From a virus: 64,000 bases of DNA. Where the stretch lies: IMG/VR virus record IMGVR_UViG_3300025073_000036, positions 30,887 through 94,886 of that record, one strand, 5' to 3'. The notes under the pieces are model-generated. The model searched no databases, was not told where the DNA came from, and worked only from the letters and a program-made list of their open reading frames with translations. The translations under genes and the position numbers were made by a program. Positions within the stretch are counted from its first letter, which is position 1. Each line of letters opens with the position of its first letter. Positions 4,620-54,513 of this stretch are shown one piece after another.

Positions 4620-4648
4620 ACACTAGGCGCCGCGCGCCAATGTGGCAA
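4620..4648 (-). promoter_or_regulatory. Sigma70-like leftward promoter with 17-bp operator (4624-4640)
   Basis: Minus strand TTGCCA-17bp-TAGTGT; overlaps TAGGCGCCGCGCGCCAA (plus-strand reading). Confidence 0.65.
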
Positions 4649-20872: not shown

Positions 20873-20956
20873 ACAATAGGCGCCACACGCCAACAAGGCA
20901 AGATGAAAATTAGCGTGTGAGGCGTATTGACAGCCCGGCGACCCTGAACGTAGCGT
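20873..20956. promoter_or_regulatory. Divergent promoter region with two 17-bp operators
   Basis: Minus TTGCCT-17-TATTGT; plus TTGACA(20927)-18-TAGCGT; operators at 20877-20893 and 20910-20926. Confidence 0.7.
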
Positions 20957-40683: not shown

Positions 40684-41210
40684 CCCCGGTCGAGGCCGCG
40701 CTGCGGGCCGTCGCGCACCTGCAAGCCGTTCTCCCGACCCGCCCGGGAGGCTGGCAGGTCGAGCCCGTGCACAACGGCTGCGCCGCCCTCGTCGGCGAGG
40801 GCCAGCACGGCGAGATCCGCGTGGAGGTGGACGGCGCCGCCCGCCTCGTGCGCCTGACGTTCGTGGCCCTCGAGGTCGGCGTCCTGCGCGTGGTGCGTCT
40901 GGCCATCGGCCCCGTGGAGGCCGGCCGCTCGTGGCCTGAGCGCCTGGCCGACGGGGCGGCGGCCTTCATGCGGGGCGAGCCGGACGCCGCAATCCGGCAC
41001 CGCCGCGCGCCGCCGCACTCGGCGCTGGCCGAGATCCGGGTGCGCTGGGCCTGCCCGGCCTGCGAGGCCGGGACGTGGACGCCCATGGGCCTCGTCCTGC
41101 ACCGGGGCGGGGCGGTCGCCTGCGCCACCTGCCGCAAGCCGGCCACCGTCGAGCTCGCGGCCGCCGCACAGCCCGTCCGGCTGCGCCTCGTGCAGGCGGG
41201 TGTGACGTGA
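40680..41210 (+). CDS. Hypothetical Zn-ribbon protein
   Basis: CPAC...CATC. Confidence 0.5.
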   Translation: MTPVEAALRAVAHLQAVLPTRPGGWQVEPVHNGCAALVGEGQHGEIRVEVDGAARLVRLTFVALEVGVLRVVRLAIGPVEAGRSWPERLADGAAAFMRGEPDAAIRHRRAPPHSALAEIRVRWACPACEAGTWTPMGLVLHRGGAVACATCRKPATVELAAAAQPVRLRLVQAGVT

Positions 41211-43372
41211 TTCGGCGCGCGCTGCTGGCCCTCCTGGCGGTCGCGCTGGCCGTGGCCGGCCTCGACCATGTCCGGCAGGTCGAGCGGGCCGGCGCGCGGG
41301 CGCTCGCGGCCGCGCTGGACGAGATCCGGGCGCGCTTTCTGAGCAACGACGAGGCCCGGGCGCTGCTCGCCCGCTGGGACACCGCCACGCACCTCGAGCG
41401 CGTGCGCCTGGCGGCGTGGAAGCTGCGCCGGGAGGACGCGGAAGCCACGGCCGCCGTGGCCCCCGTGGACGAGACCACCAAGGCCATGCTGGCGGTCGCG
41501 CACGAGCAACTGCTGCGCGACTCGCTGGCGTACTGGATGCGCCACGCGGCCGGCATGAAGGTCGGGCCGCATCACGTCGAATGGTCGGAGCTGCTGGTCG
41601 GGCACTCGCACCTCGCGCTCCTGGCAGCGCGAGGTCACGGCAAGTCGAGCTTCTGGTCGTATGCCTTCCCCCTGTGGCGGAGCTGGCGCGATCCGCACAC
41701 GCTCGGCCTGCTCGTCAGCAACACAGAGGGCCAGGTCTCGGCCCTGATGCGGCTGATCAAGGACGGCAAGAGCTTCACCGACGAGTACGGCGACGAGTGG
41801 ACGATGCCACCGGCGGCCACGATCCCGTGTCTCGCCCCGCTCATCCCGACCTCGTGGGAGACGACGTGGACCACCGAGCGGATCTGGTTCGAGAACGGCT
41901 CGCAATTCGTCGCCAAGACGTTCGGAAAGTCGTTTCGAGGCGCGCACGTCCAGTGGATCGTGGTCGACGACCCGCTGCGCGAGAATTCGCAATACAGCTC
42001 GGTGGACCGCAAGAAATCCAAGGACTTCCTGCACCGCACCATCGCCAAGATGCTGCTACCGGCGGCCTTCGCGCACCTCGTCGTGATCGGGACGCCGATG
42101 CACGGCGACGACCTGCACGCCGATCTCGCCGCGCTCTCGAAACGAGCCGACGACCGGGGCCGCGAGAAGGGCGACTGGTTGCACCGGAAGTATCCGGGGC
42201 ACTGGCGGACGAAAAACGGCCGCGACCGCTTCCTGTGGCCGGCCCTGCGGGCCGAGAAGTGGCACCGGCGCGAGAAGGAATCGAACAGCCTGGCCTACAT
42301 TCAGGAGGTCGAGCTGCGCCCGGTCTCCGACGAGACCTCGCTCTTCCCGCGCGAGCTCTTCTCGCGCCACCCGGACACGCTCGACAGCCTGAGCCGCCTC
42401 AAGCCGTCGCGGGGCGACATCGTCGCCGCCGGCTGGTCGGTCTACATGGGCGTCGACCTCGCGATCTCGGCCGAGGTAGGGGCCGACTTCACGGTGATCC
42501 TCGTGGTCGGCGTGGACGCGCACGGCGCCCGTCACCTCATCGACCTCGTGCGGGGCAAGGGCTGGTCGTTTGACGAGCAGTTGCAGCGGATCAAGGACGC
42601 CCACGCCAGCTACGGGACGGACCTGATCTTCATCGAGAGCAATCAGATGCAGATCTTGTTCGCCCAACAGCTTGCGCGGCGCACAGACCTGCCCGTCCGG
42701 CCGTTCCGCACCGGGGAAGAGAAACACACGCTCCGGCGCGGCGTGCCGTCGCTGCGGCCGTTGATCGAGAACGGCAAGTGGCGATTCCCGCGTGGTGACG
42801 CGCTCTCGGTCGAGCTGACCGACCTGCTGCTCGACGAGCTCAACGACTTCGGGTTCGTGGATGGCAAGGTCCAGGGCATCGGCAATCACGACGACTGCGT
42901 CATGGCCATGTGGATCGCCGATCAAGCCATCCGGGCCGGGGGCGAGTTCGGCTTCTCCGAGGGCGAGGACGACGGCGATCCGGCCGCGCGCGCCCGCCGG
43001 GCGGAGGCCGAGCGCCTGGCCGCGCTGGCGGACGCCAAGGGGCCGCAGGAACAGCTCGCGGCGCTGGTCGAGGCCGACCGGGCGGCCGAGAGTGCAACCC
43101 GGACGGCCGCGCGCGACGCTGTGGCCCCCCGGGTCAACCCGCACGCGGTCACCTGGCGGCACGCGGCCCTCATCCACCCCGACGGTGTCGAGGGCGTGCG
43201 CGACGCCTCGCGCGACCTGCCCGCCGACCGCGCCGATCATGTCCGGGCCTGGAATGCGCTCTCAGTCGAGCCCCCCAAAGTGGTCGAGTGCGATCCGGCC
43301 TTCGGGCAGCTCGTGCTCGTCCAGGGCATCGACATCACACGCGCGATGCTGCGCGACCTGCTCGGCCTGTAG
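41207..43372 (+). CDS. terL: Terminase large subunit
   Basis: Walker A ARGHGKS, Walker B IVVDD, IGTP, RNase H MGVDLA, IESN, HDDCVMA. Confidence 0.92.
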   Translation: MIRRALLALLAVALAVAGLDHVRQVERAGARALAAALDEIRARFLSNDEARALLARWDTATHLERVRLAAWKLRREDAEATAAVAPVDETTKAMLAVAHEQLLRDSLAYWMRHAAGMKVGPHHVEWSELLVGHSHLALLAARGHGKSSFWSYAFPLWRSWRDPHTLGLLVSNTEGQVSALMRLIKDGKSFTDEYGDEWTMPPAATIPCLAPLIPTSWETTWTTERIWFENGSQFVAKTFGKSFRGAHVQWIVVDDPLRENSQYSSVDRKKSKDFLHRTIAKMLLPAAFAHLVVIGTPMHGDDLHADLAALSKRADDRGREKGDWLHRKYPGHWRTKNGRDRFLWPALRAEKWHRREKESNSLAYIQEVELRPVSDETSLFPRELFSRHPDTLDSLSRLKPSRGDIVAAGWSVYMGVDLAISAEVGADFTVILVVGVDAHGARHLIDLVRGKGWSFDEQLQRIKDAHASYGTDLIFIESNQMQILFAQQLARRTDLPVRPFRTGEEKHTLRRGVPSLRPLIENGKWRFPRGDALSVELTDLLLDELNDFGFVDGKVQGIGNHDDCVMAMWIADQAIRAGGEFGFSEGEDDGDPAARARRAEAERLAALADAKGPQEQLAALVEADRAAESATRTAARDAVAPRVNPHAVTWRHAALIHPDGVEGVRDASRDLPADRADHVRAWNALSVEPPKVVECDPAFGQLVLVQGIDITRAMLRDLLGL

Positions 43373-43373
43373 A

Positions 43374-44402
43374 TCAGCAGGCGGGGAAGAGCTCGCACTG
43401 TACCCAGGCCTCGACCGGGGCCTCGACGGCGCAGGCTTCGACCGGGTCGAGCACGTCCCAGCGGGCGGGCAGCGCGGCCGGCCCGGCCTCCCAGCGGATC
43501 TTGTCCGGCGCGGCGTAGTCCAGGCGGTTGCCCGCCCGGGAGCCGCCGCCGCCGGGCGTCACCTTGCCCGGGCAGAGCGCCACCGGCCGCAGGCCCTTGT
43601 CGACCAGGGCGCGGTACGTCGTGCCCGCCTCGCTCGTGAGCTGGTAGGTGACGAAGAGCCACGAGCCATCCGGGTCACCGCGCCGAGAGCGCGGAGCGAG
43701 GTCGAGCAGGCGCGAGACGAGCATGGAGGCCGCGCCGAGCGTCGTGCCGTCCGAGGCCACGCGGGTCAGCTCGAGCACGTTGCGGGCCTCGACGCGGCCG
43801 GCGCCCCAGCGCCCGGTCGGGTGGCCTGCAGTGGCCACGGCCACGAGGCGCCCGCCGCGCTTCACGCCGACCGCGTACATGAGGCCGCGCGGGTTCATTT
43901 CCGGCATGGCGCTGTGATGCTCGGCGATGAAGGCCCGGGCCTCGTCGAGCGGCACGTTGACGAGACGCAACTTGCCCGCCGGGGCCAGCGCGTCGGCCAG
44001 GATCTCGCGCACGATGGCGTCGGGGATCTCGCCGCCGCGTGCGCTCGACCGCGCGACGAGCATCGCCGCGTCGGCCGCCTCCTCCGGCGTCCACCCGGGC
44101 ACGCCGAGCGCGAAGGGCAGTTCGTCCAGGGTGAAGGCGAATGAATCGGCCTCGTCGTCAACCTCGTCGAGCTCGGCCGGCGTCCAGTCGTAGACCTCGT
44201 GACCGGCGGCGCGCAGCGCGCCCTCGACGAGGTGCAATTCGCCGCCGTCGTAGAGCGCGACCACGCGGGCCACGAAGTCGTCGACGGCGGCTTCGGCCTC
44301 GGCCCGTGCGGGGCTGATCTCGCGGTAGCCGCGCTCACCCGGGCGAGGCGCAGCGGCGGAGCCGAAGCGGACGTGCAGGTCCACGCGGCCGTTGCTGCTC
44401 AT
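43374..44402 (-). CDS. Mom/XF1762-like GNAT-fold DNA-modification protein with N-terminal extension
   Basis: EARAFIAEHH...VAVATAGHP...LELTRVASDG...ASML...VTYQLTSEAGTTYRA...KIRW. Confidence 0.7.
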   Translation of the reverse strand: MSSNGRVDLHVRFGSAAAPRPGERGYREISPARAEAEAAVDDFVARVVALYDGGELHLVEGALRAAGHEVYDWTPAELDEVDDEADSFAFTLDELPFALGVPGWTPEEAADAAMLVARSSARGGEIPDAIVREILADALAPAGKLRLVNVPLDEARAFIAEHHSAMPEMNPRGLMYAVGVKRGGRLVAVATAGHPTGRWGAGRVEARNVLELTRVASDGTTLGAASMLVSRLLDLAPRSRRGDPDGSWLFVTYQLTSEAGTTYRALVDKGLRPVALCPGKVTPGGGGSRAGNRLDYAAPDKIRWEAGPAALPARWDVLDPVEACAVEAPVEAWVQCELFPAC

Positions 44403-45355
44403 CGGAAAGCCTCGACGCCGTAACAGGCCTCTTCGGCCGCGAAGTAGGCGGCCTCGCCCAGGCTGCACTCGTCGCCGGCCAGCAGGTCGCCCCATTCCTC
44501 GTGAGCGGGACCGATGCCATCCGGCGCGCCGGGGGCGAAGATCGCCGGCTGGAAGAAGTCAGCGGCCGCCACGGCCTCGATCTGCCGCCCGTACCAGTCG
44601 GCCATCGCCTCGATCCGAACGTCCATCGTGCGGCTGGCGAACTTGTTGCCGAACCTGGCGCCCGTGTCCCAGGCCATCGAGTCGATGGAGGCCACGCGCG
44701 GGTGAGCCGCCAGCGCCGAGAGGCCGCTCGACTTCACGCCGAAGAGGTGCAGGCGGACACCGGCGGGCAGCACCCGGTCGAGGGCGTCGACCACGGCGAG
44801 CAGGCCTTCCGACCCGTACACGCTGCGGCGACACATCGACCCCACGCCGACGAGCGCGAGGCCTTCGAGGCGCGCGCCGAGCTGCTGGACGTGCCAGACG
44901 TAGTCTTCGACCGTTCGGCCTTGGAGCACGGGCATCGGGGGCGCGATCCCGGCCTCACGGGCCAGCACCTCGCACTGGCCGAGCAGGCGGATCGTCTCGG
45001 CCTGCCGCAGGCGAACCGTGCCACGGTCGGCCGCGATCTCGGCCTCGCAGCAGGCGTCCATTTGCGCCCACCATGCCCAGCGACGCGAGGCCGCGAGGGC
45101 CACGTACTGCTCGACCGTCCAGGGGAATGCACCGTAGTGCGCATGGGCCACGAAGCCGGCCGAGTCGAGGGCCACGTCCAGGCCGTCGAGGTCGGGGCAG
45201 TCGGTGCGGAAGTCGGAGAACGTGCGCTCGAGGCCGCGCCCACGGTAGCGAGCAAGCGCGTTGGCGCTCACGAGCACCGCCGCGCCGAGCGAGCGAGCGG
45301 CGGCCGGCAGAGCGCCGCCGACGAGGGGCAGGCCAACGCGGATCGTGGTGCTCAC
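44399..45355 (-). CDS. dpdA: DpdA-like DNA 7-deazaguanine transglycosylase (TGT superfamily)
   Basis: LDSAGF, MDACCE, PVLQG, VGVGSMCRR, LHLFGVK, SIDSMAW. Confidence 0.75.
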   Translation of the reverse strand: MSTTIRVGLPLVGGALPAAARSLGAAVLVSANALARYRGRGLERTFSDFRTDCPDLDGLDVALDSAGFVAHAHYGAFPWTVEQYVALAASRRWAWWAQMDACCEAEIAADRGTVRLRQAETIRLLGQCEVLAREAGIAPPMPVLQGRTVEDYVWHVQQLGARLEGLALVGVGSMCRRSVYGSEGLLAVVDALDRVLPAGVRLHLFGVKSSGLSALAAHPRVASIDSMAWDTGARFGNKFASRTMDVRIEAMADWYGRQIEAVAAADFFQPAIFAPGAPDGIGPAHEEWGDLLAGDECSLGEAAYFAAEEACYGVEAFR

Positions 45356-45564
45356 TTGCTGGTCACCCGGCAGGTCTCGCAGGCCGGGCGGCCGCGCAGG
45401 TAGGGCGTCAGCTCGGCCATTTCGGTTTTCGTTACCCGGTGGATCTTCTGGCCGCTGATGTCTCGGCCGGTCATCCGGGCCGACGCTCCGAGGTGCGACG
45501 AGCAGTAGCAAGCGCCGTTGTCGCAGAAGTAGTGAGCACCTTCGACCAGCTTGAAACCGGGCAT
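45352..45564 (-). CDS. Small Cys-rich protein, first gene of the dpdA operon
   Basis: AAGGAG RBS; CDNGACYC..H...CETC. Confidence 0.65.
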   Translation of the reverse strand: MPGFKLVEGAHYFCDNGACYCSSHLGASARMTGRDISGQKIHRVTKTEMAELTPYLRGRPACETCRVTSK

Positions 45565-45618
45565 CTTCCGTCTCCTTACAACAGGTCTTCCGCCGCCCCG
45601 GCAGTCAGGGCAAGGTCA

Positions 45619-45647
45619 ACAGTAGGCGCGGCCCGCTAACAATGCAA
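45619..45647 (-). promoter_or_regulatory. Promoter of the dpdA operon with 17-bp operator (45623-45639)
   Basis: Minus TTGCAT-17-TACTGT; operator TAGGCGCGGCCCGCTAA. Confidence 0.65.
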
Positions 45648-45713
45648 CGGAAAAATGCACAACGGTACAAGCAACGTGATTCCAGCACGTTGCGCGCGCC
45701 GTGTCGGATGCGC

Positions 45714-45742
45714 TTGTCGGGTAGGCGCCGCACGCTCATAGT
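45714..45742 (+). promoter_or_regulatory. Rightward promoter with 17-bp operator (45722-45738)
   Basis: TTGTCG-17-CATAGT; operator TAGGCGCCGCACGCTCA. Confidence 0.55.
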
Positions 45743-45748
45743 TGTGCG

Positions 45749-46210
45749 CGGACACCCCTTGTCCCCGGGTCCAGGGCGGCGCAGCGCGGGTGCCCAACGC
45801 GCTGCGCCGCCCTCCGGTCTTTGACTACCCCCCGAGCAGGGCAAGGCCGCCCGTTCGATCCCCCGCCTCGACGCCTGGCAATCCGCCGTCGAGGCATTCG
45901 TGGGGCGCGGGCCAACGGTGTGCGTCCCCGACGCTGGTAAGTGCCGAGCCCGCCGCCACCTCCGGTGTTCCCCCACCGACGGCGGTTGAGAAGGACGAGC
46001 GGCCCGTGCGTCAAGCCAGGGCGGGCCGGTTCGTTGATAGATTCCCGTTGTGGCACCAGCCTGGGTAGCCGGTAGTGGACAATCCGGCCATCGCGGGCAA
46101 CCTTGCATCGGAAGGCGGCTACGCCCGACAACCCTGAAAGGGGCGGCCCGTCGGCAACGTCACAAAGCCGCAGCTCGCTCCCAAGCCTGCAGCAGGCAGC
46201 GAGCGCCCGG
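45749..46210 (+). ncRNA. Candidate large structured ncRNA (unclassified)
   Basis: About ten stems including a perfect 16-bp stem, GNRA loops, plus-strand G-U pairs; no credible ORF. Confidence 0.5.
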
Positions 46211-46283
46211 GCCGGTGCCTCTTCCTCTTCCGTGGCCGCGTGTTACGATGCGCGCCAGTCCAGCCTGGGGGAGCGGAAAGCGC

Positions 46284-49200
46284 ATGCGCCGTCTCGATCT
46301 CGACCATCCGATCAAGCGGTCTGCGCTGCCCCCGTCCCCCGACCCGGCGGCAGATGGCGACGATCCGGAGGTCTCGACCGCGATGGCCTTCGCGCAGCCC
46401 GCCCCGCCCCCCAGGCTGGACGCTCTACTTCAAGGCGTGCCGGAGGCCCGCCGGCCGGCCGCCAGGCGAGTGCTCGAGGAAGGCGGCCCCGGGTGGCGCC
46501 GCGAACTGCTGGCCCTCCTGGCCGGGCAGGACGAGGCCCGCGCACGGGCCGTGCTCGGCATGGCAGCCGAATACATGCAGGCGCAGCCGCGCCGGACGAG
46601 GGAGAAGCGCGTGAAGCTCACGGATACGCTGCGCAAGGCCGATGATCTGCTGCGCCGGGTGCGCGGCCTCGACGGGGCCGACGGTGGGGAGCGCGAGATC
46701 TCGGCCGAGATGGGCGCGATCCTGTGGGCGCGCCAGGAGAGCGACCTCGTCAAGGGTGAGTCGCACAAGTACCTGCGGCGTGTTCCGACCGGCAACCCGC
46801 GCCGGCCGTGGCGCTACTTCTACAGCGTGGCCGGCGGCAAGGGGCTCGGCCACGAGGACGAGCTCGTCGAGGGCGCCGCCTTCCTGCTCGAGCACAACGG
46901 CAAGCGCGGGCACTTCCATGTCATCGGCCGCACGCCGGACGGGAAGATCACGGTCCGGCACGACGAGAGCGGGCACACCGAAACGCTCGACCCGGCCGTG
47001 TTTGTGGCCATGCTGCACCGAGGCCACGCCCAGGCCATCGCGGCCCACGCCGAGCGCATGGGCCGCGATCTCTCCGCCGTGCGGCAGAGCGGCAGCGCCC
47101 GGCAGCGCGCCCGCCTCGAGGCCGAGGCGGGCAAGTACGGCCACACCCGACACCTCGTCGAGGCCCAGGCCAAGGATTCCAAGGTCGAGCGCCTGCTCGG
47201 TGCGCTGGCCACGGCCGAGGCCGACGCCGCGCGCTTCAAGCGCGAGGGCAAGTTGCGCTCGCTCTACGACGTGAACAGCATGATCGCCGGCCTCAAGCGT
47301 CAGATCCGCGAGGCCGGCGGCCAGGTGCCCGACGAGGTGGCACCTCCGCCGGAAGCGCCCGCCGCGCCCGCACCGGGCAAGGTGCTGACCTTTCCGGGCG
47401 CGAAGGCCTCGAGCGCAGCACCGGAGGCCGGGCCGCCGGGCCTGCCCGCCGCCACGCAGGCCAAGGTCGACCGCGTCGTCGATGGCATGATCGCCCAGGT
47501 CATTCCGCCGGGCCTCAAGGGGCATCCCCGCGTCGGCGAGTTGCACGAGGTCATCCGGGCCTGGGCACAGGAGAACGGCCAGGCCATCGGCGACGGCGAC
47601 ACGGACGCGGTCAAGGCCGCCATGCCCGCGCTCTCCGAGCGCATGAACGCCGTCGGGCGCGAGCTCGTGGCCACGCCGTCGAACACGGTGCCGCTGGCCC
47701 CGAAGAGCGCGGGCGGCAAGGACCCACACCGCGCGCCGGCCCCGGGCGACCGGATCGTCTACAACGCCCCATGGCACGGCGGGGGGCTGCGGGCGACCGT
47801 GACCGGCCTGGCGTCCGATGGGCACATGATGCTCGTCAAGTACGACGACGGCACGACGGGCTCGCTGCCCGCGAGCTTCATGCACCCGGCCTACACCGAC
47901 CACGGCAGCAAAGCCTACTTCGAGGAATTGCGGCCGTCCGGCCCGCCGTCGGAGGCGCAGATCGTCGAGATGAAGGCCCGAGCGGTGGCCCGCCGGCTGG
48001 AAAAGGAAGCCCAGGAGCGGGCCGAGGCCGAGGCCCACGCGCGCGAAACGGCTGGCTGGCACTCGCCCAAGGACCGCACCGAGAACAACAAGCGCCTCAA
48101 GGCCGCGCTCAAGAAGATCACCGGGCACGACTGGTCTGTCACCGGCAGCACCGGGACCGGTTACGGCTGGGTGCATGCCACCCCCGGCATTCCTGACGGA
48201 GAGACGGCCGAGTACCGGGACGGGCCGCACAAAGACCTCTACCGCATGGTCTCGATCATCAGTCCGGGCTCGCGTGACTACGTTCTGCGCGAGGTCGAGA
48301 AGCGGGCCGGCATCTTCACCCCGGGCGCGGTCACGCCGGAGCAGCACAAGGCCCAGGTCGAGACCGACAAGGCGGCGCGAGAGGCGGCCGGGCAGGCGGC
48401 CGCCTCGACGGTCAACGTCGGGTCGGTGGTCCAGATCGACGGCCACCCGCGCCGCTACCTCGTGACGGCGAAAAAGGCCTACGGCGGCAGCCCGCCGAGT
48501 TTCCAGCTCGCCGCACTGTCCGGGGCCGAAGCGGGCAGCGCGCCGAGCGGCGTGGCCGCCGCGCGCGTGACGCTGCACCCGGATCAGACGGTCGCCTTCC
48601 ACGGGGCCAACGCGCCGAAGCTGCGCAACAAGGCCGCCGCGCACGCTTTCATCTACCGCGCGGACCACCCGGAGGACACCGAGCGGGTGCGGGCGACGAT
48701 CAACGCCGCCCCCGTGAACCTCGACCCGCCTCCGGCGCCCACGAAGGCCGACCGGGTGCAGCGGGCGCGCGAGCGGGCCGTGGAGGCCGGGACGGCCTTG
48801 CCTACCGCCCCCGCGCCCTCCCAGGCGGCCGAGCCTTCAGCCGAGCCCGCTGCGGCCGCAGCGCCGGCCGGCGATGTGCGTTTCGGTGACGTGAAGACGG
48901 CCACGACCCGCAGCACCGGCGTCACGGTCTATCAGGCCCCGACGAAGGGGAACGTGCCGGCCGAGCGCCTGGCAGAGATGGACGCCGACGCCAAGGCCCG
49001 GGGCGGCTACCGCCTGCGGGGCGAGCCGCACACGTTCCGCACCGAGGCCGCAGCTCGTGACTTCATGGCGAAGTGGGGCACCCCGGCATCCACTGAGGCC
49101 CCGCTCGATGGTCGGGCAGCCGAGCACGAGGGCAAGGCCGCGCGCCACGAGGTCGAAGCCAGCCGCTTCGAGCCTGAGCATCCCGTCGCCGAAAAACACC

Positions 49201-52148
49201 GCGAGGCGGCCATCGCACACCGCAAGGCGGCGCGAGCATTCGACCGCGCGGCCGCGAGCCCCAGCATGGCGCCCATGGCTGGCCGGCTGGCCGACGAGGC
49301 GCAGGCCCGCAGCCGGGACGTGGAAAGCGTCGCCGGCCGCCTGGCCGAGCGTGACGCGCTCCGGCAGGCCGCAGGGCAGCCCGGGCCGGCGAGCAAAACG
49401 CCGGCCGAGCGGGCGGCGCCCGCCGCATTGCCCACGCCCGCCACGCCGACCGGCCTGCAGCCGGCGGACTCGGCGCACTATCAGGTGCTGGGCGGCGACT
49501 CTCACGAGGTCGCCCAGGCCCGTCAGAAGGCCAAAACGGCCGCCGCCGAGTACGAGCGGGCCACCGCCATGGCCTACGCGCGAAGCAAGGGCGCCAACCC
49601 CGGATCGGCCGCAGCCCGGGAGGCGAAAGAGGTCGCCGGTGACCGCCGGGAGCGGGCCGAAGCCGCGCACGATGCGCTCGTAACCGCCGTCGGCAGGATG
49701 GCCGGCAGCGTGGCCCCGGCGGCCCCGGTCGAGCTACCTCGCACCGGCGTTGTCGAGGTCAGCCGCCGCGACCCGCTGACCGACCGGGTCAGCATCGAGC
49801 GCGTGGATCTCGATGCCCACCGGGCGCAGTGGGCGGCCGCCGCGCGGACCTACGACGACGATCTGCTCACGGCCAAGATCAAAGGCCACCGGGGCAACGT
49901 CACTTCCATGCGTTTCCACCAGGCGGGCGAGCGGGCGCAAACTGTCGTTGCGCTCGAGGCCCTGGAGGCCGAGAAGGCCCGCCGCAAGGTCGAGCGGGCT
50001 GCGCCCGCCGCTGCCCCGACCATCACCGCCGAGCAGGCCTCGACGGCCGCCGCCGCGCAGCGCGACAAGCACACCGACCGCGCCGTCTGGCACCGAGATC
50101 GCGCCGACGCGCTCGAGATGATGGGGGACTCGAGCGGCGCCGCGAAACACCGGGACGCGCACGGCGCACACGCTGCCGCTGAGAGCGCGCACCACGCCGT
50201 TCGGGTCAACGTCGTCAACGGCCGCGCCAGCATGCTCGACACGCTCATCCCGGCCGCGCAGCAGAAGACGACCGCCGCCGAGCGGGCCTCACAGGCGGCC
50301 GACGCTCACATCGCCGCCCCGACGAAGAGCAAGGACGAGATCGAGCACGACCTGGGCCGCAAGGGCGTCGGGTACATGGACCGCGTCGAGCCCGTGATCG
50401 CCGAACTGGAGGCCAAGCGGGCAGCAGCAGGCCCCGGGGCCGCCAGCGAGCAGCAGGCCCACCCGGGGGCTGCGCCTGCAAAGTGGACGAAGCGCCACGA
50501 CGAAGGCGGCCGGCCGGTCTACGACTCGCCCAGCGGCCGCGTGCGGGTCATCGGCAACCCCAACGGCCTGCACCATGTCATTCAGCAGGATCTCGCCACC
50601 GGGCGCTGGGTGGGCACCTTCGACGGGCCGCGCTCCGAGGCCATGGAGGCCGCCGTGCGCACGGAGGCCTCCGCCGCGCAACAGACGGTCGAGACCGAGA
50701 AGGCCCGCGAGGCGGCCCTGCAGGCGGGCGAGCGCGAGGCCCGCGCCCGGGCCATGCTCGGCACCGAGACGGCTTCCGTCGTGGCCGCCGGGAACGCGCG
50801 CCGCACGGCCGAGCAGCGGGCGGCCGATCACGCTCTCGCCGACCGCGCGCAGGCCGCGCGCCACGCATTCAGCGCAGCGGTGCAGGAGCATCAGGGCGGC
50901 GCCGAGATCAACCGGCACTCGCGCCGGCTGATGGATCTCGACTCCGGCGTCAACGTCCTGCGCACCAGCCGGGACGCCGTCGGCGGGCAGATGAGCCCGG
51001 GCGCGCTCGATGGCAACCGGGCGCAGGTGCGATCCGAGGCCGAGGCCCTGGAGGCCGCAGCGGCGAAGATCAAGGCCGAGGCCGCGTCGCCGCCCCCGGC
51101 CCCCGACGCACCCCACGCGCACGCGCTCGGTGTCGAGGTCAGCCGTGCGCAGGTCAACCGGCGGCTGGCCCAGGCAGCGCACGAGGGCACGAGCCATGTG
51201 CCGGAGAAGCGGGCCGAGCAGGAGGTCGACGGTTACGTCTCGCACATGAACGAGGTGGCCGCCGATCTCGCGCGGCACGCCACGACGCCGGAGAAACGCG
51301 CGCAGCTCAAGGAAGAGCTGGAACGCTACCGGGACGGCTACCTGCAGCGGTTCCACGCCCACCTGTCGGCCCGCTCTCGCGTGATCTCGCCGCTCGTGAC
51401 CGGCCCGGCCCGCTTCCCGGTCGCACGCAATCAGAAGGCCAACGCCACGGCCGACAAGCGCACCGGCGAGCTCGTGGAGTGGTCGACCAGCGCCCGCCGT
51501 GCGATCCGCAACAAGCTCAACCCAGCGACGGTCTCGTCCGACCGGGCCGACGCACACGAGATCCTGACCGACCGAGTCGGGAAGCTCCGGCAGCGTCAGG
51601 AGTCGATGAAGGCGCAGAACGCCATCATCCGGGGCAAGGGCAGCGAGGACGAGAAGATCGCCCGGCTGCGCGAGCTCGGTCTCGGCGAGGCGGCGGCCCG
51701 CGCGCTCTTCAAACCAGATTTCGCCGGCCGCGTCGGCTGGCCCGACTACGTGCTCAAGAACAACCTGGCCGAGATCAAGCGCCTCGAGGGCCGCTCGGTC
51801 GAGGTGGCCAAGGAAACGAGCACGGCCTCGAGCGAGCACACCTTCGGGGACGTTCGCGTCGAGGACTCGGCGGAGGACAACCGGATCAGGCTCTTCTACC
51901 CGGGCAAGCCCGACGCCGAGACCATCGGGAAGCTCAAGCGGCACGGGTTCCGCTGGTCGCCGAGCGAAGGCGCCTGGCAGCGGTTCCGCAACGACAGCAC
52001 CCGGTCGGTGCTGCGCCATCACTTCGGGATGGATCTCGGCTCGTCGGGGGAGAGCGAGGGAGAGTCGCTGCAGAAGGCCGAGCCGCCCCGGTCGAGCGAG
52101 CTTGTGAGCCGCGCGGACGCGCTGCTCGCTCTCGTTCGTGGTGCCTGA
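46284..52148 (+). CDS. Large polyvalent (likely virion-internal) protein with C-terminal DUF3560-like domain
   Basis: About 1950 aa; VTGPARFP, SSDR, NNLAEIKRL, EDNRIRLFYPGKPD...GFRWSPSEGAWQR; SH3/KOW-like segments; Ala/His-rich linkers. Confidence 0.7.
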   Translation: MRRLDLDHPIKRSALPPSPDPAADGDDPEVSTAMAFAQPAPPPRLDALLQGVPEARRPAARRVLEEGGPGWRRELLALLAGQDEARARAVLGMAAEYMQAQPRRTREKRVKLTDTLRKADDLLRRVRGLDGADGGEREISAEMGAILWARQESDLVKGESHKYLRRVPTGNPRRPWRYFYSVAGGKGLGHEDELVEGAAFLLEHNGKRGHFHVIGRTPDGKITVRHDESGHTETLDPAVFVAMLHRGHAQAIAAHAERMGRDLSAVRQSGSARQRARLEAEAGKYGHTRHLVEAQAKDSKVERLLGALATAEADAARFKREGKLRSLYDVNSMIAGLKRQIREAGGQVPDEVAPPPEAPAAPAPGKVLTFPGAKASSAAPEAGPPGLPAATQAKVDRVVDGMIAQVIPPGLKGHPRVGELHEVIRAWAQENGQAIGDGDTDAVKAAMPALSERMNAVGRELVATPSNTVPLAPKSAGGKDPHRAPAPGDRIVYNAPWHGGGLRATVTGLASDGHMMLVKYDDGTTGSLPASFMHPAYTDHGSKAYFEELRPSGPPSEAQIVEMKARAVARRLEKEAQERAEAEAHARETAGWHSPKDRTENNKRLKAALKKITGHDWSVTGSTGTGYGWVHATPGIPDGETAEYRDGPHKDLYRMVSIISPGSRDYVLREVEKRAGIFTPGAVTPEQHKAQVETDKAAREAAGQAAASTVNVGSVVQIDGHPRRYLVTAKKAYGGSPPSFQLAALSGAEAGSAPSGVAAARVTLHPDQTVAFHGANAPKLRNKAAAHAFIYRADHPEDTERVRATINAAPVNLDPPPAPTKADRVQRARERAVEAGTALPTAPAPSQAAEPSAEPAAAAAPAGDVRFGDVKTATTRSTGVTVYQAPTKGNVPAERLAEMDADAKARGGYRLRGEPHTFRTEAAARDFMAKWGTPASTEAPLDGRAAEHEGKAARHEVEASRFEPEHPVAEKHREAAIAHRKAARAFDRAAASPSMAPMAGRLADEAQARSRDVESVAGRLAERDALRQAAGQPGPASKTPAERAAPAALPTPATPTGLQPADSAHYQVLGGDSHEVAQARQKAKTAAAEYERATAMAYARSKGANPGSAAAREAKEVAGDRRERAEAAHDALVTAVGRMAGSVAPAAPVELPRTGVVEVSRRDPLTDRVSIERVDLDAHRAQWAAAARTYDDDLLTAKIKGHRGNVTSMRFHQAGERAQTVVALEALEAEKARRKVERAAPAAAPTITAEQASTAAAAQRDKHTDRAVWHRDRADALEMMGDSSGAAKHRDAHGAHAAAESAHHAVRVNVVNGRASMLDTLIPAAQQKTTAAERASQAADAHIAAPTKSKDEIEHDLGRKGVGYMDRVEPVIAELEAKRAAAGPGAASEQQAHPGAAPAKWTKRHDEGGRPVYDSPSGRVRVIGNPNGLHHVIQQDLATGRWVGTFDGPRSEAMEAAVRTEASAAQQTVETEKAREAALQAGEREARARAMLGTETASVVAAGNARRTAEQRAADHALADRAQAARHAFSAAVQEHQGGAEINRHSRRLMDLDSGVNVLRTSRDAVGGQMSPGALDGNRAQVRSEAEALEAAAAKIKAEAASPPPAPDAPHAHALGVEVSRAQVNRRLAQAAHEGTSHVPEKRAEQEVDGYVSHMNEVAADLARHATTPEKRAQLKEELERYRDGYLQRFHAHLSARSRVISPLVTGPARFPVARNQKANATADKRTGELVEWSTSARRAIRNKLNPATVSSDRADAHEILTDRVGKLRQRQESMKAQNAIIRGKGSEDEKIARLRELGLGEAAARALFKPDFAGRVGWPDYVLKNNLAEIKRLEGRSVEVAKETSTASSEHTFGDVRVEDSAEDNRIRLFYPGKPDAETIGKLKRHGFRWSPSEGAWQRFRNDSTRSVLRHHFGMDLGSSGESEGESLQKAEPPRSSELVSRADALLALVRGA

Positions 52149-52735
52149 TGGGCGACCCGACCCGGCTGGCCAAGGCCGACGGCGGGCCGGCGCAGCTCGT
52201 GCGGGCCGCCGTCGCGCGCGCCCCGCACCCGCTGGGGCCGCCGCCCGCCCGCAACCGGGCCACGTTCCCCTATCAGGGCACGGTGGACTTCCAAGGCCTC
52301 ACGATCCGGGTCGAGAACGCCGTCGGCTCGACTCGGCGCGGCACGAGCCCGGACGGAACACCGTGGGAGACGCGCATGCGCGTCCACTACGGCGAGTTCG
52401 CCGGCAGCATCGGCGCCGACGGCGACGCGGTGGATTGTTTCGTCGGCCCCGGCCGCTTCGAGCCCTACGTCTACGTGGTACACACGCAGGACCCGGGCAC
52501 GCGCCGCTACGACGAGGACAAGGTCATGCTCGGCTTCCGCAGTCGTGACGAGGCCCTGGCCGTCTTCCGCGCGCACTACACCGGGCGAGGTTTCGTGCAG
52601 AGCGTGCGCCGCTTGACCATCGGGGAGTTGCGGGCCTGGCTGGCCGCCCCGCAGAATCGCGGCCGCAAGATCAACGGCGGCGACGTGCTGGCCAAGGCCG
52701 ACGCGCTGCTCGCCCGCGTCCGGTCGGGGGAGTAG
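52148..52735 (+). CDS. InPase (inorganic pyrophosphatase-like domain of phage polyvalent systems)
   Basis: GLTIRVEN..GS.R.G...W...M..HYG...GADGDAVD.FVGP...DEDKVMLGF. Confidence 0.8.
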   Translation: MGDPTRLAKADGGPAQLVRAAVARAPHPLGPPPARNRATFPYQGTVDFQGLTIRVENAVGSTRRGTSPDGTPWETRMRVHYGEFAGSIGADGDAVDCFVGPGRFEPYVYVVHTQDPGTRRYDEDKVMLGFRSRDEALAVFRAHYTGRGFVQSVRRLTIGELRAWLAAPQNRGRKINGGDVLAKADALLARVRSGE

Positions 52736-52737
52736 TG

Positions 52738-54513
52738 ATGGATCTGTGGGAAAAGCTCGGCGAAATCGCCTTCGGCGTGCTCGAGCAGCGAGAGGAAGAA
52801 CGGATCGCCAAGGCCGCCAGGCCGGCCGGTAGCGGGCTGACGGACGAGGGCGACGACGAGGCCAAGCGCAAGCGGCAGCAAAAAGGCAAGGGGCCGGCCG
52901 GCATCTTCACGGACCCGGATCTCGAGCTCTACAACAAGAGCACCGGGGGCGACTACGTCGAGCGCCCGAGCGGCATCGACCTCGACGTGCTGCGCCGCAT
53001 GGCGCGCACGCCCCCCATCGCCGCCGTGGGCAACGTGATGTGCGACGGCCTGGCCGAGTTCTGCACCGCCCAGGCCGACCGCTCGCTGCCCGGGCACGAA
53101 GTCCGCATGCGCGGCAAAAACCGCCGCTACACGCCCACGAAGGCCGAGCGGGCCGAAATGGAGCGCGTGCAGCGGTTCGTCACCAACTGCGGCTACTACG
53201 AGAACGAGGCCGAGCTCGTGAACCGGCCCGATCTCGAATCGACGGTCCGAGCCACCTTCTGGGACTCGTTCAGGTTCGATCAAATGTGCTGGCAGGTCGA
53301 GCCGACCGCCGCATGGAAGCTCGGCGGCCGCTTCGAGCCGTTCCGCTTCTACGGCTGGCCCGGGCACACGATCCGGCTGGCCATGCCGCCCCAGGACGGC
53401 TCGCGCCTGCCCGACGACGACCTGACGAGCCCGCGCTACGTGCAGGTCGACCGGCACGACAACGTCGTGGCCTCGTTCACCGGGCAGCAGATGATGTTCG
53501 GCGTCCTGCACCCCATGACCGACATCGAAAACGCCGGCTACGGGTACGGCGTGCTCGAGCAGTTGATCGACGTGCTCGCCGCGTGGCTGTACGGCTACGG
53601 CTACAACAAGGCCTATTTCAAGCAGGGGGCCAACGTGCGCGGCGTCCTGCACTTCGAGACCGAGCCGCCGAAAGAGCAGCAGCGCCGGTTCGAGCGGTAC
53701 TTCCACGCCCTGATCGCCGGTGTCGGCAACGCGCACAAGGTTCCCATCGCCTGGGGCGGTAAGGCGCAGTGGCTCGGCCTGGGCGCGAACAACCGCGAGA
53801 TGGAGTTCTCGCAGTGGCTCGACTTCCTCAACAAGGTGCTGTGCGCGATCTGTGGCATCGATCCCGTCGAGATCAACTTCACCTATGGCAACAGCGGGCA
53901 GACGGCGGCCATCGGCGGGCAGGCCTCGGCCCCGGAGCGCATCCAGGCCTCGCGCGCCCGTTGGCTGCGGCCCCGGGTGCGGGCGCTCTTCAAGTGGCTC
54001 AATCGCTGGGTGGTCTACCCGCTGCGGCCGGAGATGGAGTGCGTGCCCACCGGCATCGACGAGAAGAGCGAGGCGGCCGAGCGCGAGCGCATGATGGATC
54101 TCGTCAAGCACACGCACTACGTCGACGAGGTCCGGGCCATGATGGGCGACAAGCCACTGCCCGACGGCGACGGCAAGGTCATCCTCGATCCCACATGGCT
54201 GCAGATGAAACAGGCCCAGCAGCCCGCACCGGGCGAAGGCGACGACGCGGCCGCCGCCGGTGATGTCCCGCCGGAGGACGCCGACGCAGCGGCCGAAAAG
54301 CTGCTCGCCGGAAAGGGCCAGGACGAGGGCCAGGAGGCCGCGCAGGAAGCGGACGAGGGCGAGGCCACGCCCGCCGCTGCTTCGGCCGCCAAACGACCGG
54401 CCAGGCGGCCCGGCAAGTCTGATCTCTTCGATGCCTCGCTGATCAAGGGCGAGGTCACTTCCACGCCGCCCGCGCGCCGTGATACATCGTGGACGGCCAT
54501 CATCAACCTGTGA
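52738..54513 (+). CDS. Portal protein
   Basis: GYG..EQL...YN..YF.QGA..RG.L...NREMEF..W...ICGIDP.EI...VDEVRA..G..PLPDGD. Confidence 0.88.
   Translation: MDLWEKLGEIAFGVLEQREEERIAKAARPAGSGLTDEGDDEAKRKRQQKGKGPAGIFTDPDLELYNKSTGGDYVERPSGIDLDVLRRMARTPPIAAVGNVMCDGLAEFCTAQADRSLPGHEVRMRGKNRRYTPTKAERAEMERVQRFVTNCGYYENEAELVNRPDLESTVRATFWDSFRFDQMCWQVEPTAAWKLGGRFEPFRFYGWPGHTIRLAMPPQDGSRLPDDDLTSPRYVQVDRHDNVVASFTGQQMMFGVLHPMTDIENAGYGYGVLEQLIDVLAAWLYGYGYNKAYFKQGANVRGVLHFETEPPKEQQRRFERYFHALIAGVGNAHKVPIAWGGKAQWLGLGANNREMEFSQWLDFLNKVLCAICGIDPVEINFTYGNSGQTAAIGGQASAPERIQASRARWLRPRVRALFKWLNRWVVYPLRPEMECVPTGIDEKSEAAERERMMDLVKHTHYVDEVRAMMGDKPLPDGDGKVILDPTWLQMKQAQQPAPGEGDDAAAAGDVPPEDADAAAEKLLAGKGQDEGQEAAQEADEGEATPAAASAAKRPARRPGKSDLFDASLIKGEVTSTPPARRDTSWTAIINL

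Follow-up and report, generated by a model that had tools for sequence, protein, structure and literature searches.

We identified a gene-free region between a reverse-oriented DNA-modification cassette and the virion genes of a high-GC uncultured phage that probably gives rise to a plus-strand RNA starting at ~45749, of which ~290 nt are constrained. This best reading combines two possibilities, i.e. a structured leader of the virion-gene operon and a stand-alone RNA. The window, i.e. the whole stretch of DNA that was analysed, comprises the final 64 kb of an IMG/VR virus record of 94,886 bp, which has a GC content of ~72% and a completeness of 96% as estimated by CheckV. The features of the region are collected in Table 1, and all coordinates are those of the window.

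Table 1. Genes, control signals and structural features in and around the gene-free gap.
Feature	Coordinates	Strand	Remarks
Terminase large subunit gene	40940-43372	+	upstream of the modification cassette
Mom-like protein gene	43374-44495	-	divergent operon with DpdA and 70-aa Cys-rich protein
DpdA gene	44399-45349	-	Pfam PF23859, 6.7e-19
70-aa Cys-rich protein gene	45352-45564	-	preceded by AAGGAGA
Gene-free gap	45565-46283 (~720 nt)		between 70-aa gene (-) and 1954-aa ORF (+)
Candidate leftward promoter of the 70-aa/DpdA/Mom-like operon	45619-45647	-	TTGCAT 45647-42, 17 nt, TACTGT 45624-19
Inverted repeat	45672-45692		CAACGTG-N7-CACGTTG; 'phage operator' of the first-pass annotation
Promoter P1 (predicted)	45714-45742	+	-35 TTGTCG 45714-19, 17-nt spacer, -10 CATAGT 45737-42
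Conserved core of putative RNA	45749-46040	+	292 nt
5'-terminal hairpin	45750-45764	+	GGACA-CCCCU-UGUCC; GGACA 45750 / TGTCC 45760; at predicted start
Long GC hairpin	45766-45817	+	perfect 16-bp stem 45773-88 / 45798-813, extended by CCGG/CCGG
Invariant CGGUCUUUGACUA	45815-45827	+	directly past long hairpin; attenuator-like U-rich tail or boxA-like element
Stem	45865-95	+	GCCTCGACG 45865 / CGTCGAGGC 45887
Stem	45902-28	+	GGGGCGC 45902 / GCGTCCC 45922
Long-range pairing	45933-46060	+	GCTGGTAAGTGCC 45933 / GGCACCAGC 46052
Hairpin	45950-45985	+	CCGCCG...CGGCGG; inner stem CGGUG/CACCG
Hairpin	45994-46036	+	GACGAGCGGCCCG...CGGGCCGGUUCGUU; most conserved block
Variable domain	46041-46219	+	closing helix 46052-46065 / 46206-46219; GCAA and GAAA loops, hairpin 46173-46204
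Stem in variable domain	46065, 46116	+	GTAGCCG 46065 / CGGCTAC 46116
CCCTGAAAGGGG in variable domain	46132	+	
Hairpin in variable domain	46173-46204	+	GCTCGCT 46173 / AGCGAGC 46198
Pyrimidine tract	46220-46233	+	UCUUCCYCUUCC; one change among three phages
Candidate extended -10 promoter P2	46241-46249	+	TGTTACGAT; same in three phages
1954-aa polyvalent-type protein gene	46284-52148	+	SD GGGGGAG 46267-73
Portal gene	52549-54513	+	next after giant gene

The first-pass annotation of this DNA, which proposed a structured non-coding RNA, placed it just upstream of the head genes; this needs amending in that the next gene encodes the giant polyvalent-type protein and the portal gene comes later, at 52549. 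The N-terminal module of the giant ORF is common to polyvalent proteins of 1.3-3.4 kaa. In the 1954-aa protein the module spans ~135 residues (~147-282) with the motif KGxxHKYxRRxPxG...WRYxY...HDExG, its other carriers being polyvalent proteins with SNF2-helicase, ParB-like and InPase-type domains, and the C-terminus of the protein matches phrog_19458, which is annotated as 'primase'. At least 20 further homologues of the giant protein were found, no close cultured relative was found for the terminase, and the cassette shows PHROG matches to phrog_1279 and phrog_1384. Further downstream, the segment 59266-62486 carries a DDE transposase-like ORF with weak Pfam IS1/IS240 matches followed by an N6-adenine methyltransferase/Eco57I-like gene, in a patch of lower GC content (62-66%).

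Besides the window phage, only two metagenomic phage contigs carry the element, i.e. a 38-kb IMG/VR contig (loci L004, L005, L008, L043 and L045 and the contig end L003/L007; here called L004) and L044, a 4.9-kb metagenome contig of the same sample series, so that the comparison comprises three sequences, two of them from one metagenome. A blastn search of 50,697 phage records yielded no further homologues, nhmmer and blastn searches of 36 IMG/VR giant-module loci and 13 metagenome DpdA loci returned only the L004-type sequence and L044, and blastn did not find the element in five related phages whose records were searched in full. Scanning IMG/VR and 185,579 genomes for exact patterns added only chance matches in coding DNA (e.g. 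dihydroorotate dehydrogenase GGLSGP motif, PVFDYP), and a 19-mer taken from the hairpin 45994-46036 likewise gave chance matches only in the 185,579 genomes. The outcome of these wider searches indicates that the element does not extend beyond one small clade. No long gap upstream of the giant gene is present in the closest phages that have the giant-protein module and lack the DpdA cassette. The element accompanies the insertion of the reverse-oriented DNA-modification cassette into the packaging/virion gene row. The cassette itself is mosaic among the three phages: DpdA is retained at 89-90% identity in both relatives, the L004-type phage has ~2 kb of unrelated sequence in place of the Mom-like gene, and in L044 it is the gene for the 70-aa Cys-rich protein that is replaced.

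Codon-position GC periodicity is absent from ~45565-46283, and this is the longest stretch of that kind in the window, in agreement with the earlier description of the region as the only long gap in a gene-dense genome. In the three-phage alignment the core contains seven indels that are not multiples of three, and open frames can be matched among the three phages only piece by piece and not in one consistent frame, which together show that the core is not coding. Individual candidate ORFs, including minus-strand frames of 174-184 aa that occur in each of the three phages, were rejected on the same grounds of piecewise matches in different frames. The gap holds no protein-coding gene.

The core is 88-92% identical in all three phage pairs. 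The DpdA gene reaches 86-88%, with 78% at its third codon positions, and the giant gene 76-81%, so that conservation of the core equals or exceeds that of the DpdA gene and is higher than that of the DpdA third positions or the giant gene. In L044, the 184 nt upstream of the core show 64% identity and conservation rises exactly at CGGACACC (45749), ~7 nt past CATAGT, so that the onset of conservation equals the start site predicted from P1. Comparing minimum free energies (MFE) with those of dinucleotide shuffles, we obtained for the core z = -3.0 on the plus strand and -2.15 on the minus strand, while 52 random windows of the same length from the same phage gave a mean of -0.18 (sd 0.95) and a minimum of -1.79. 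As the background windows never fall below this value, the excess of stems is real and not a by-product of GC content, and the shuffle control suggested in the first-pass annotation thus places the core outside the range of all 52 background windows. The longer segment 45749-46210 behaves similarly on the plus strand (z = -2.88, with none of 100 shuffles folding as well) and reaches -1.42 on the minus strand. The core is under constraint and folds far better than shuffled sequences or the genome background.

The start of the putative transcript would be set by P1, from which a start at ~45749-45750 is predicted. Its hexamers match the consensus at 8 of 12 positions, which is below the cut-off of the consensus promoter scanner, and no consensus promoter passes this scanner. 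The TTGTCG-17-CATAGT arrangement proposed earlier is nevertheless present and borne out by the comparison: L004 keeps both hexamers with three changes in the spacer, and L044 has TTGCAC and CATAGT separated by an 18-nt spacer in which only ~7 of 17 positions are identical. Hexamers being kept while the spacer diverges is the pattern expected for a working sigma-70-type promoter; with conserved hexamers within the 16-18 nt spacing of such promoters and a varying spacer, P1 is, as far as its sequence predicts, a promoter of this type.

The spacer of P1 holds O2 (45721-36), one copy of a 16-mer, TAGGCGCSRCNCGCY, that occurs exactly four times in the 94.9-kb phage, always on the plus strand and in promoter-like settings (4623-4638, 20876-20891, 45622-45637 and 45721-45736). 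The two copies in the gap lie 99 bp apart, the other one (O1, GTAGGCGCGGCCCGCT, 45622-45637) overlapping the candidate leftward promoter, whose hexamers are weak (3/6 each) and are kept in the three phages while their neighbours diverge. Three of the copies have ACA-N-16mer-AAYRWK-GCAA in common, which reads TTGCMW-N17-TAnTGT on the minus strand. The 16-mer is probably bound by a single phage regulator, and the gap looks like a divergent, co-regulated switch. The CAACGTG inverted repeat is partly kept in L004 and poorly in L044.

At the 3' side, a scanner for a GC-rich stem directly before a U-run found no intrinsic terminator in 45300-46500; the tails following the candidate terminator stems are UCUUUGAC and CUCUUCCUCUUCC. 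We considered the pyrimidine tract as an anti-Shine-Dalgarno sequence and rejected this function: it pairs with the SD/AUG region at -23 to -28 kcal/mol in the three phages, and shuffled tracts do equally well (z = -0.7 to -1.1), so that the pairing is explained by composition alone. The separate extended -10 element that had been assigned to the next gene, TGTTACGAT, does lie at 46241 and is the same in all three phages, but it has no -35 and may equally be a hairpin loop, as which it is predicted in the folds of all three phages. Past the long hairpin, 45800-45877 is C-rich and G-poor (C/G = 1.76 over 78 nt), a composition like that of Rho-loading sites.

The gap had been described as packed with stems, and every arm listed is found in its place (Table 1); the stems differ in how they fare among the relatives. 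The long GC hairpin has 100% of its cells paired in the three phages and shows one compensatory change (A-U to G-C) and two changes from G-C to G-U/U-G, which preserve pairing on the plus strand only. The 5'-terminal hairpin is invariant in the three phages and is therefore uninformative for covariation, and RNAalifold favours over it an alternative long-range pairing of CCUUGUCC with GGGCRAGG. The stem 45902-28 gains one G-U among the relatives, and the hairpin 45994-46036 is nearly invariant with one pair broken in L044. The hairpin 45950-85 has a different loop in L044 (8 of 10 nt changed), where its inner stem retains four of its five pairs, including one compensatory U-A to C-G change. 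The stem 45865-95 carries two adjacent mismatches in both relatives. Of the long-range pairing 45933/46060, both arms are present in the window, but the pairing is lost in L044.

Tests of the fold as a whole gave a more sober picture. The alignment contains two compensatory pairs and ~6 one-sided wobble-compatible changes, a number that 52 of 500 column shuffles reach, in a comparison of three sequences that has little power. Taking each phage's own MFE fold as the reference, most changed paired cells are broken (e.g. 19 vs 6) and variable sites show no consistent loop enrichment. RNAalifold energies are alike on both strands. Counts of G-U against A-C over all helices of at least 7-9 bp (13 to 8, 14 to 16 and 34 to 32) reveal no strand asymmetry, and only among the six longest helices is there a leaning towards the plus strand (6 to 1). 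Of the GNRA tetraloops and G-U pairs that the first-pass annotation described as working on the plus strand only, the GNRA loops cited all lie in 46058-46212, which is not conserved in the relatives.

The last part of the element is where the phages part. The variable domain cannot be aligned among the three phages, in which it measures 179, ~90 and ~90 nt, and each variable segment folds into a domain whose closing helix of 13-17 bp uses one and the same conserved 3' strand, GGC(C)GGUGCC. These closing helices contain five G-U pairs and one A-C mismatch, and plus-strand hairpins are capped by GAAA and GCAA in the window and by UUCG in L004. Homology resumes at GGCGGTGCC-TCTTCCYCTTCC, followed by the invariant GCGCGTGTTACGATGCGC and the gene start. 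A mobile element in the variable segment was rejected, as no further copies exist anywhere. The proposal of a single multidomain fold of 460 nt is not supported: the last ~155 nt are unrelated in the relatives, the stem 45865-95 is mismatched and the test against each phage's own MFE fold is negative. Our data support local hairpins and the closing helix and do not support one 460-nt multidomain architecture. Proof of the fold would take more than three sequences, and we regard the element as a plausible candidate RNA rather than a discovery.

Phages carry large structured RNAs such as phi29 pRNA, ROOL and GOLLD; phi29 pRNA is encoded in a phage that packages its DNA with pRNA, and the ROOL, GOLLD and pRNA families have many members and strong covariation. 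The candidate described here resembles them as a phage-borne, hairpin-rich non-coding RNA of several hundred nt, and it differs in size, hosts and genomic setting, in the lack of an Rfam match and in having three members with no significant covariation. A search of the whole window against Rfam 15, which includes phi29 pRNA, ROOL, GOLLD, tmRNA, RNase P, group I/II introns and preQ1 riboswitches, gave no matches at gathering thresholds, relaxing the threshold to E = 10 gave inconsistent sub-threshold matches only in the window, L004 and L044, and ARAGORN detected no tRNA or tmRNA, which agrees with the earlier judgement by eye that the region matches no tRNA, tmRNA, RNase P or group I core. The best near-match is Proteo-phage-1 (RF03044) on the plus strand at 46010-46102, with 17.6 bits and E = 3. 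Several conserved blocks of this family align with the window, but its second hairpin would be non-canonical and is not formed here. Membership was rejected, as the score is far below the gathering score of 42 and the 3' half of the match is missing or replaced in L004 and L044, which give no match.

In terms of arrangement, the region also resembles the lambda PR'-qut-6S RNA/tR' region and HK022 put, in which a sigma-70-type promoter, predicted here, directly precedes virion genes. As in lambdoid late-operon leaders, a regulator-sized site within the promoter would precede a structured, untranslated leader whose strong hairpins have to be passed by RNA polymerase. The differences are that the leader would be much longer (~535 nt, compared to 194 nt or ~70 nt) and shares no sequence similarity with these systems, that a sigma-dependent pause element is lacking and that we identified no Q-like protein. 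A possible likeness to boxA/nut-type Nus-factor sites lies in the invariant GGUCUUUGAC, ~65 nt past the predicted start and right behind the hairpin; this is the only site in the 94.9-kb phage that fits the pattern [CT]G[CTG]TCTTT[AG]A. Compared to the gamma-proteobacterial boxA consensus GYTCTTTAANA (PMC5725501), GGUCUUUGAC matches 7 of 10 specified positions with three mismatched. By its sequence, GGUCUUUGAC may be a boxA-like element or simply the U-rich tail of the hairpin.

Among the readings of the element, we tentatively prefer a cis-acting, highly structured, promoter-driven 5' leader of the virion-gene operon, a view that we hold as a working model and would not call established. It is slightly favoured over a stand-alone RNA because the element is oriented like the virion genes and lies directly next to them with no canonical terminator between, and because the strong early hairpin with its U-rich or boxA-like tail resembles attenuation/antitermination leaders. 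Non-coding status, conservation, promoter signature and excess folding are what the data show directly; transcription, its strand, the leader role and the mechanism belong to the model. We infer a model in which transcription is controlled divergently from the gap: leftwards, the Cys-rich/DpdA/Mom-like operon would be driven by a promoter that has a shared operator, and rightwards P1, with the operator in its spacer, would start a plus-strand transcript at ~45749. The transcript would open with the small 5' hairpin, continue with a very stable hairpin of 16-20 bp and UCUUUGAC, run through a conserved, hairpin-rich core of ~220 nt and then the variable domain with its long closing helix, which would end just ahead of the pyrimidine tract and the beginning of the giant-protein/portal genes. 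The leader would set the share of P1 transcription reaching the virion genes through attenuation or antitermination at its hairpins, and its structure would shield ~535 nt of untranslated RNA from decay and Rho. Against a leader speak the distant phages that have the same giant module and no gap, the minus strand that folds well too (z = -2.15) and the conserved TGTTACGAT between the RNA and the giant gene, which, if it is an extended -10, would make a leader unnecessary.

A different, rather unlikely possibility is a stand-alone non-coding RNA of ~300-470 nt that is transcribed from P1, ended by the closing helix and pyrimidine tract and active in trans, the giant gene being transcribed from P2. 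The evidence for a constrained and well-folding plus-strand RNA applies to it as well, the 5'-terminal hairpin and stable tetraloops would suit a long-lived RNA, and a very stable helix stands at the same 3' place in each phage, as a fast-evolving terminator would; the scanner, however, found no U-tract terminator. The conserved, extended -10-like TGTTACGAT between RNA and gene would supply the second promoter, but its lack of a -35 and its possible role as a hairpin loop weaken this argument. Further points against a stand-alone RNA are that we found neither a target or partner nor a related RNA family, that copies or homologues are confined to one small phage clade and that covariation is not significant. 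Its most far-reaching form, a new family of phage structured RNAs with a ~290-nt core, a swappable terminal domain and a regulated promoter of its own, forming a discrete stable molecule with a trans function in virion assembly, host takeover or defence, is improbable in our view, and the packaging, decoy and anti-defence roles put forward earlier are unsupported.

Control at the DNA level only, i.e. divergent promoters, operators and perhaps an insulating terminator, is on the unlikely side, too. The stems would then be by-products of 70% GC, and core conservation would stem from protein-binding sites or recent recombination. The operator-like 16-mer, found twice in the gap and at two other promoter regions, fits such control, but the promoter and operator signals that can be recognised are all upstream of 45749, and the best-conserved 292 nt downstream contain no repeated motif. 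Phage mosaicism nearby (the Mom-like gene in L004, the replaced 70-aa gene in L044) would agree with recombination, whereas conserved and diverged patches that alternate finely over ~100 nt are better explained by selection. That inverted repeats are symmetric, that the minus strand folds well too, that covariation is not significant and that one stem is broken in the relatives speak for control at the DNA level; the core z of -3.0 outside the GC-matched genome background and the retention of a closing helix with G-U pairs by three unrelated inserts speak against it. Another DNA function (packaging site or replication origin) or a decayed gene remnant is very improbable: the gap does lie between terminase large subunit and portal and is dense in inverted repeats, but it has no iterons and no AT-rich stretch, the terminase small-subunit region is elsewhere, and a pseudogene was rejected, as open frames are not conserved and tblastx against the relatives gives scattered, low-score matches typical of GC-rich composition.

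As a summary, we regard the element as a plausible RNA element that is new and restricted to one lineage. Structured RNAs known from uncultured phages of high GC content are few, and the timing with which such phages express their virion genes and giant injected proteins is little understood. The layout of a conserved core and a variable domain makes the element attractive for structure probing. A conserved, strongly folding RNA exactly between the DNA-modification cassette and the virion module would, if true, offer a concrete handle on that control.
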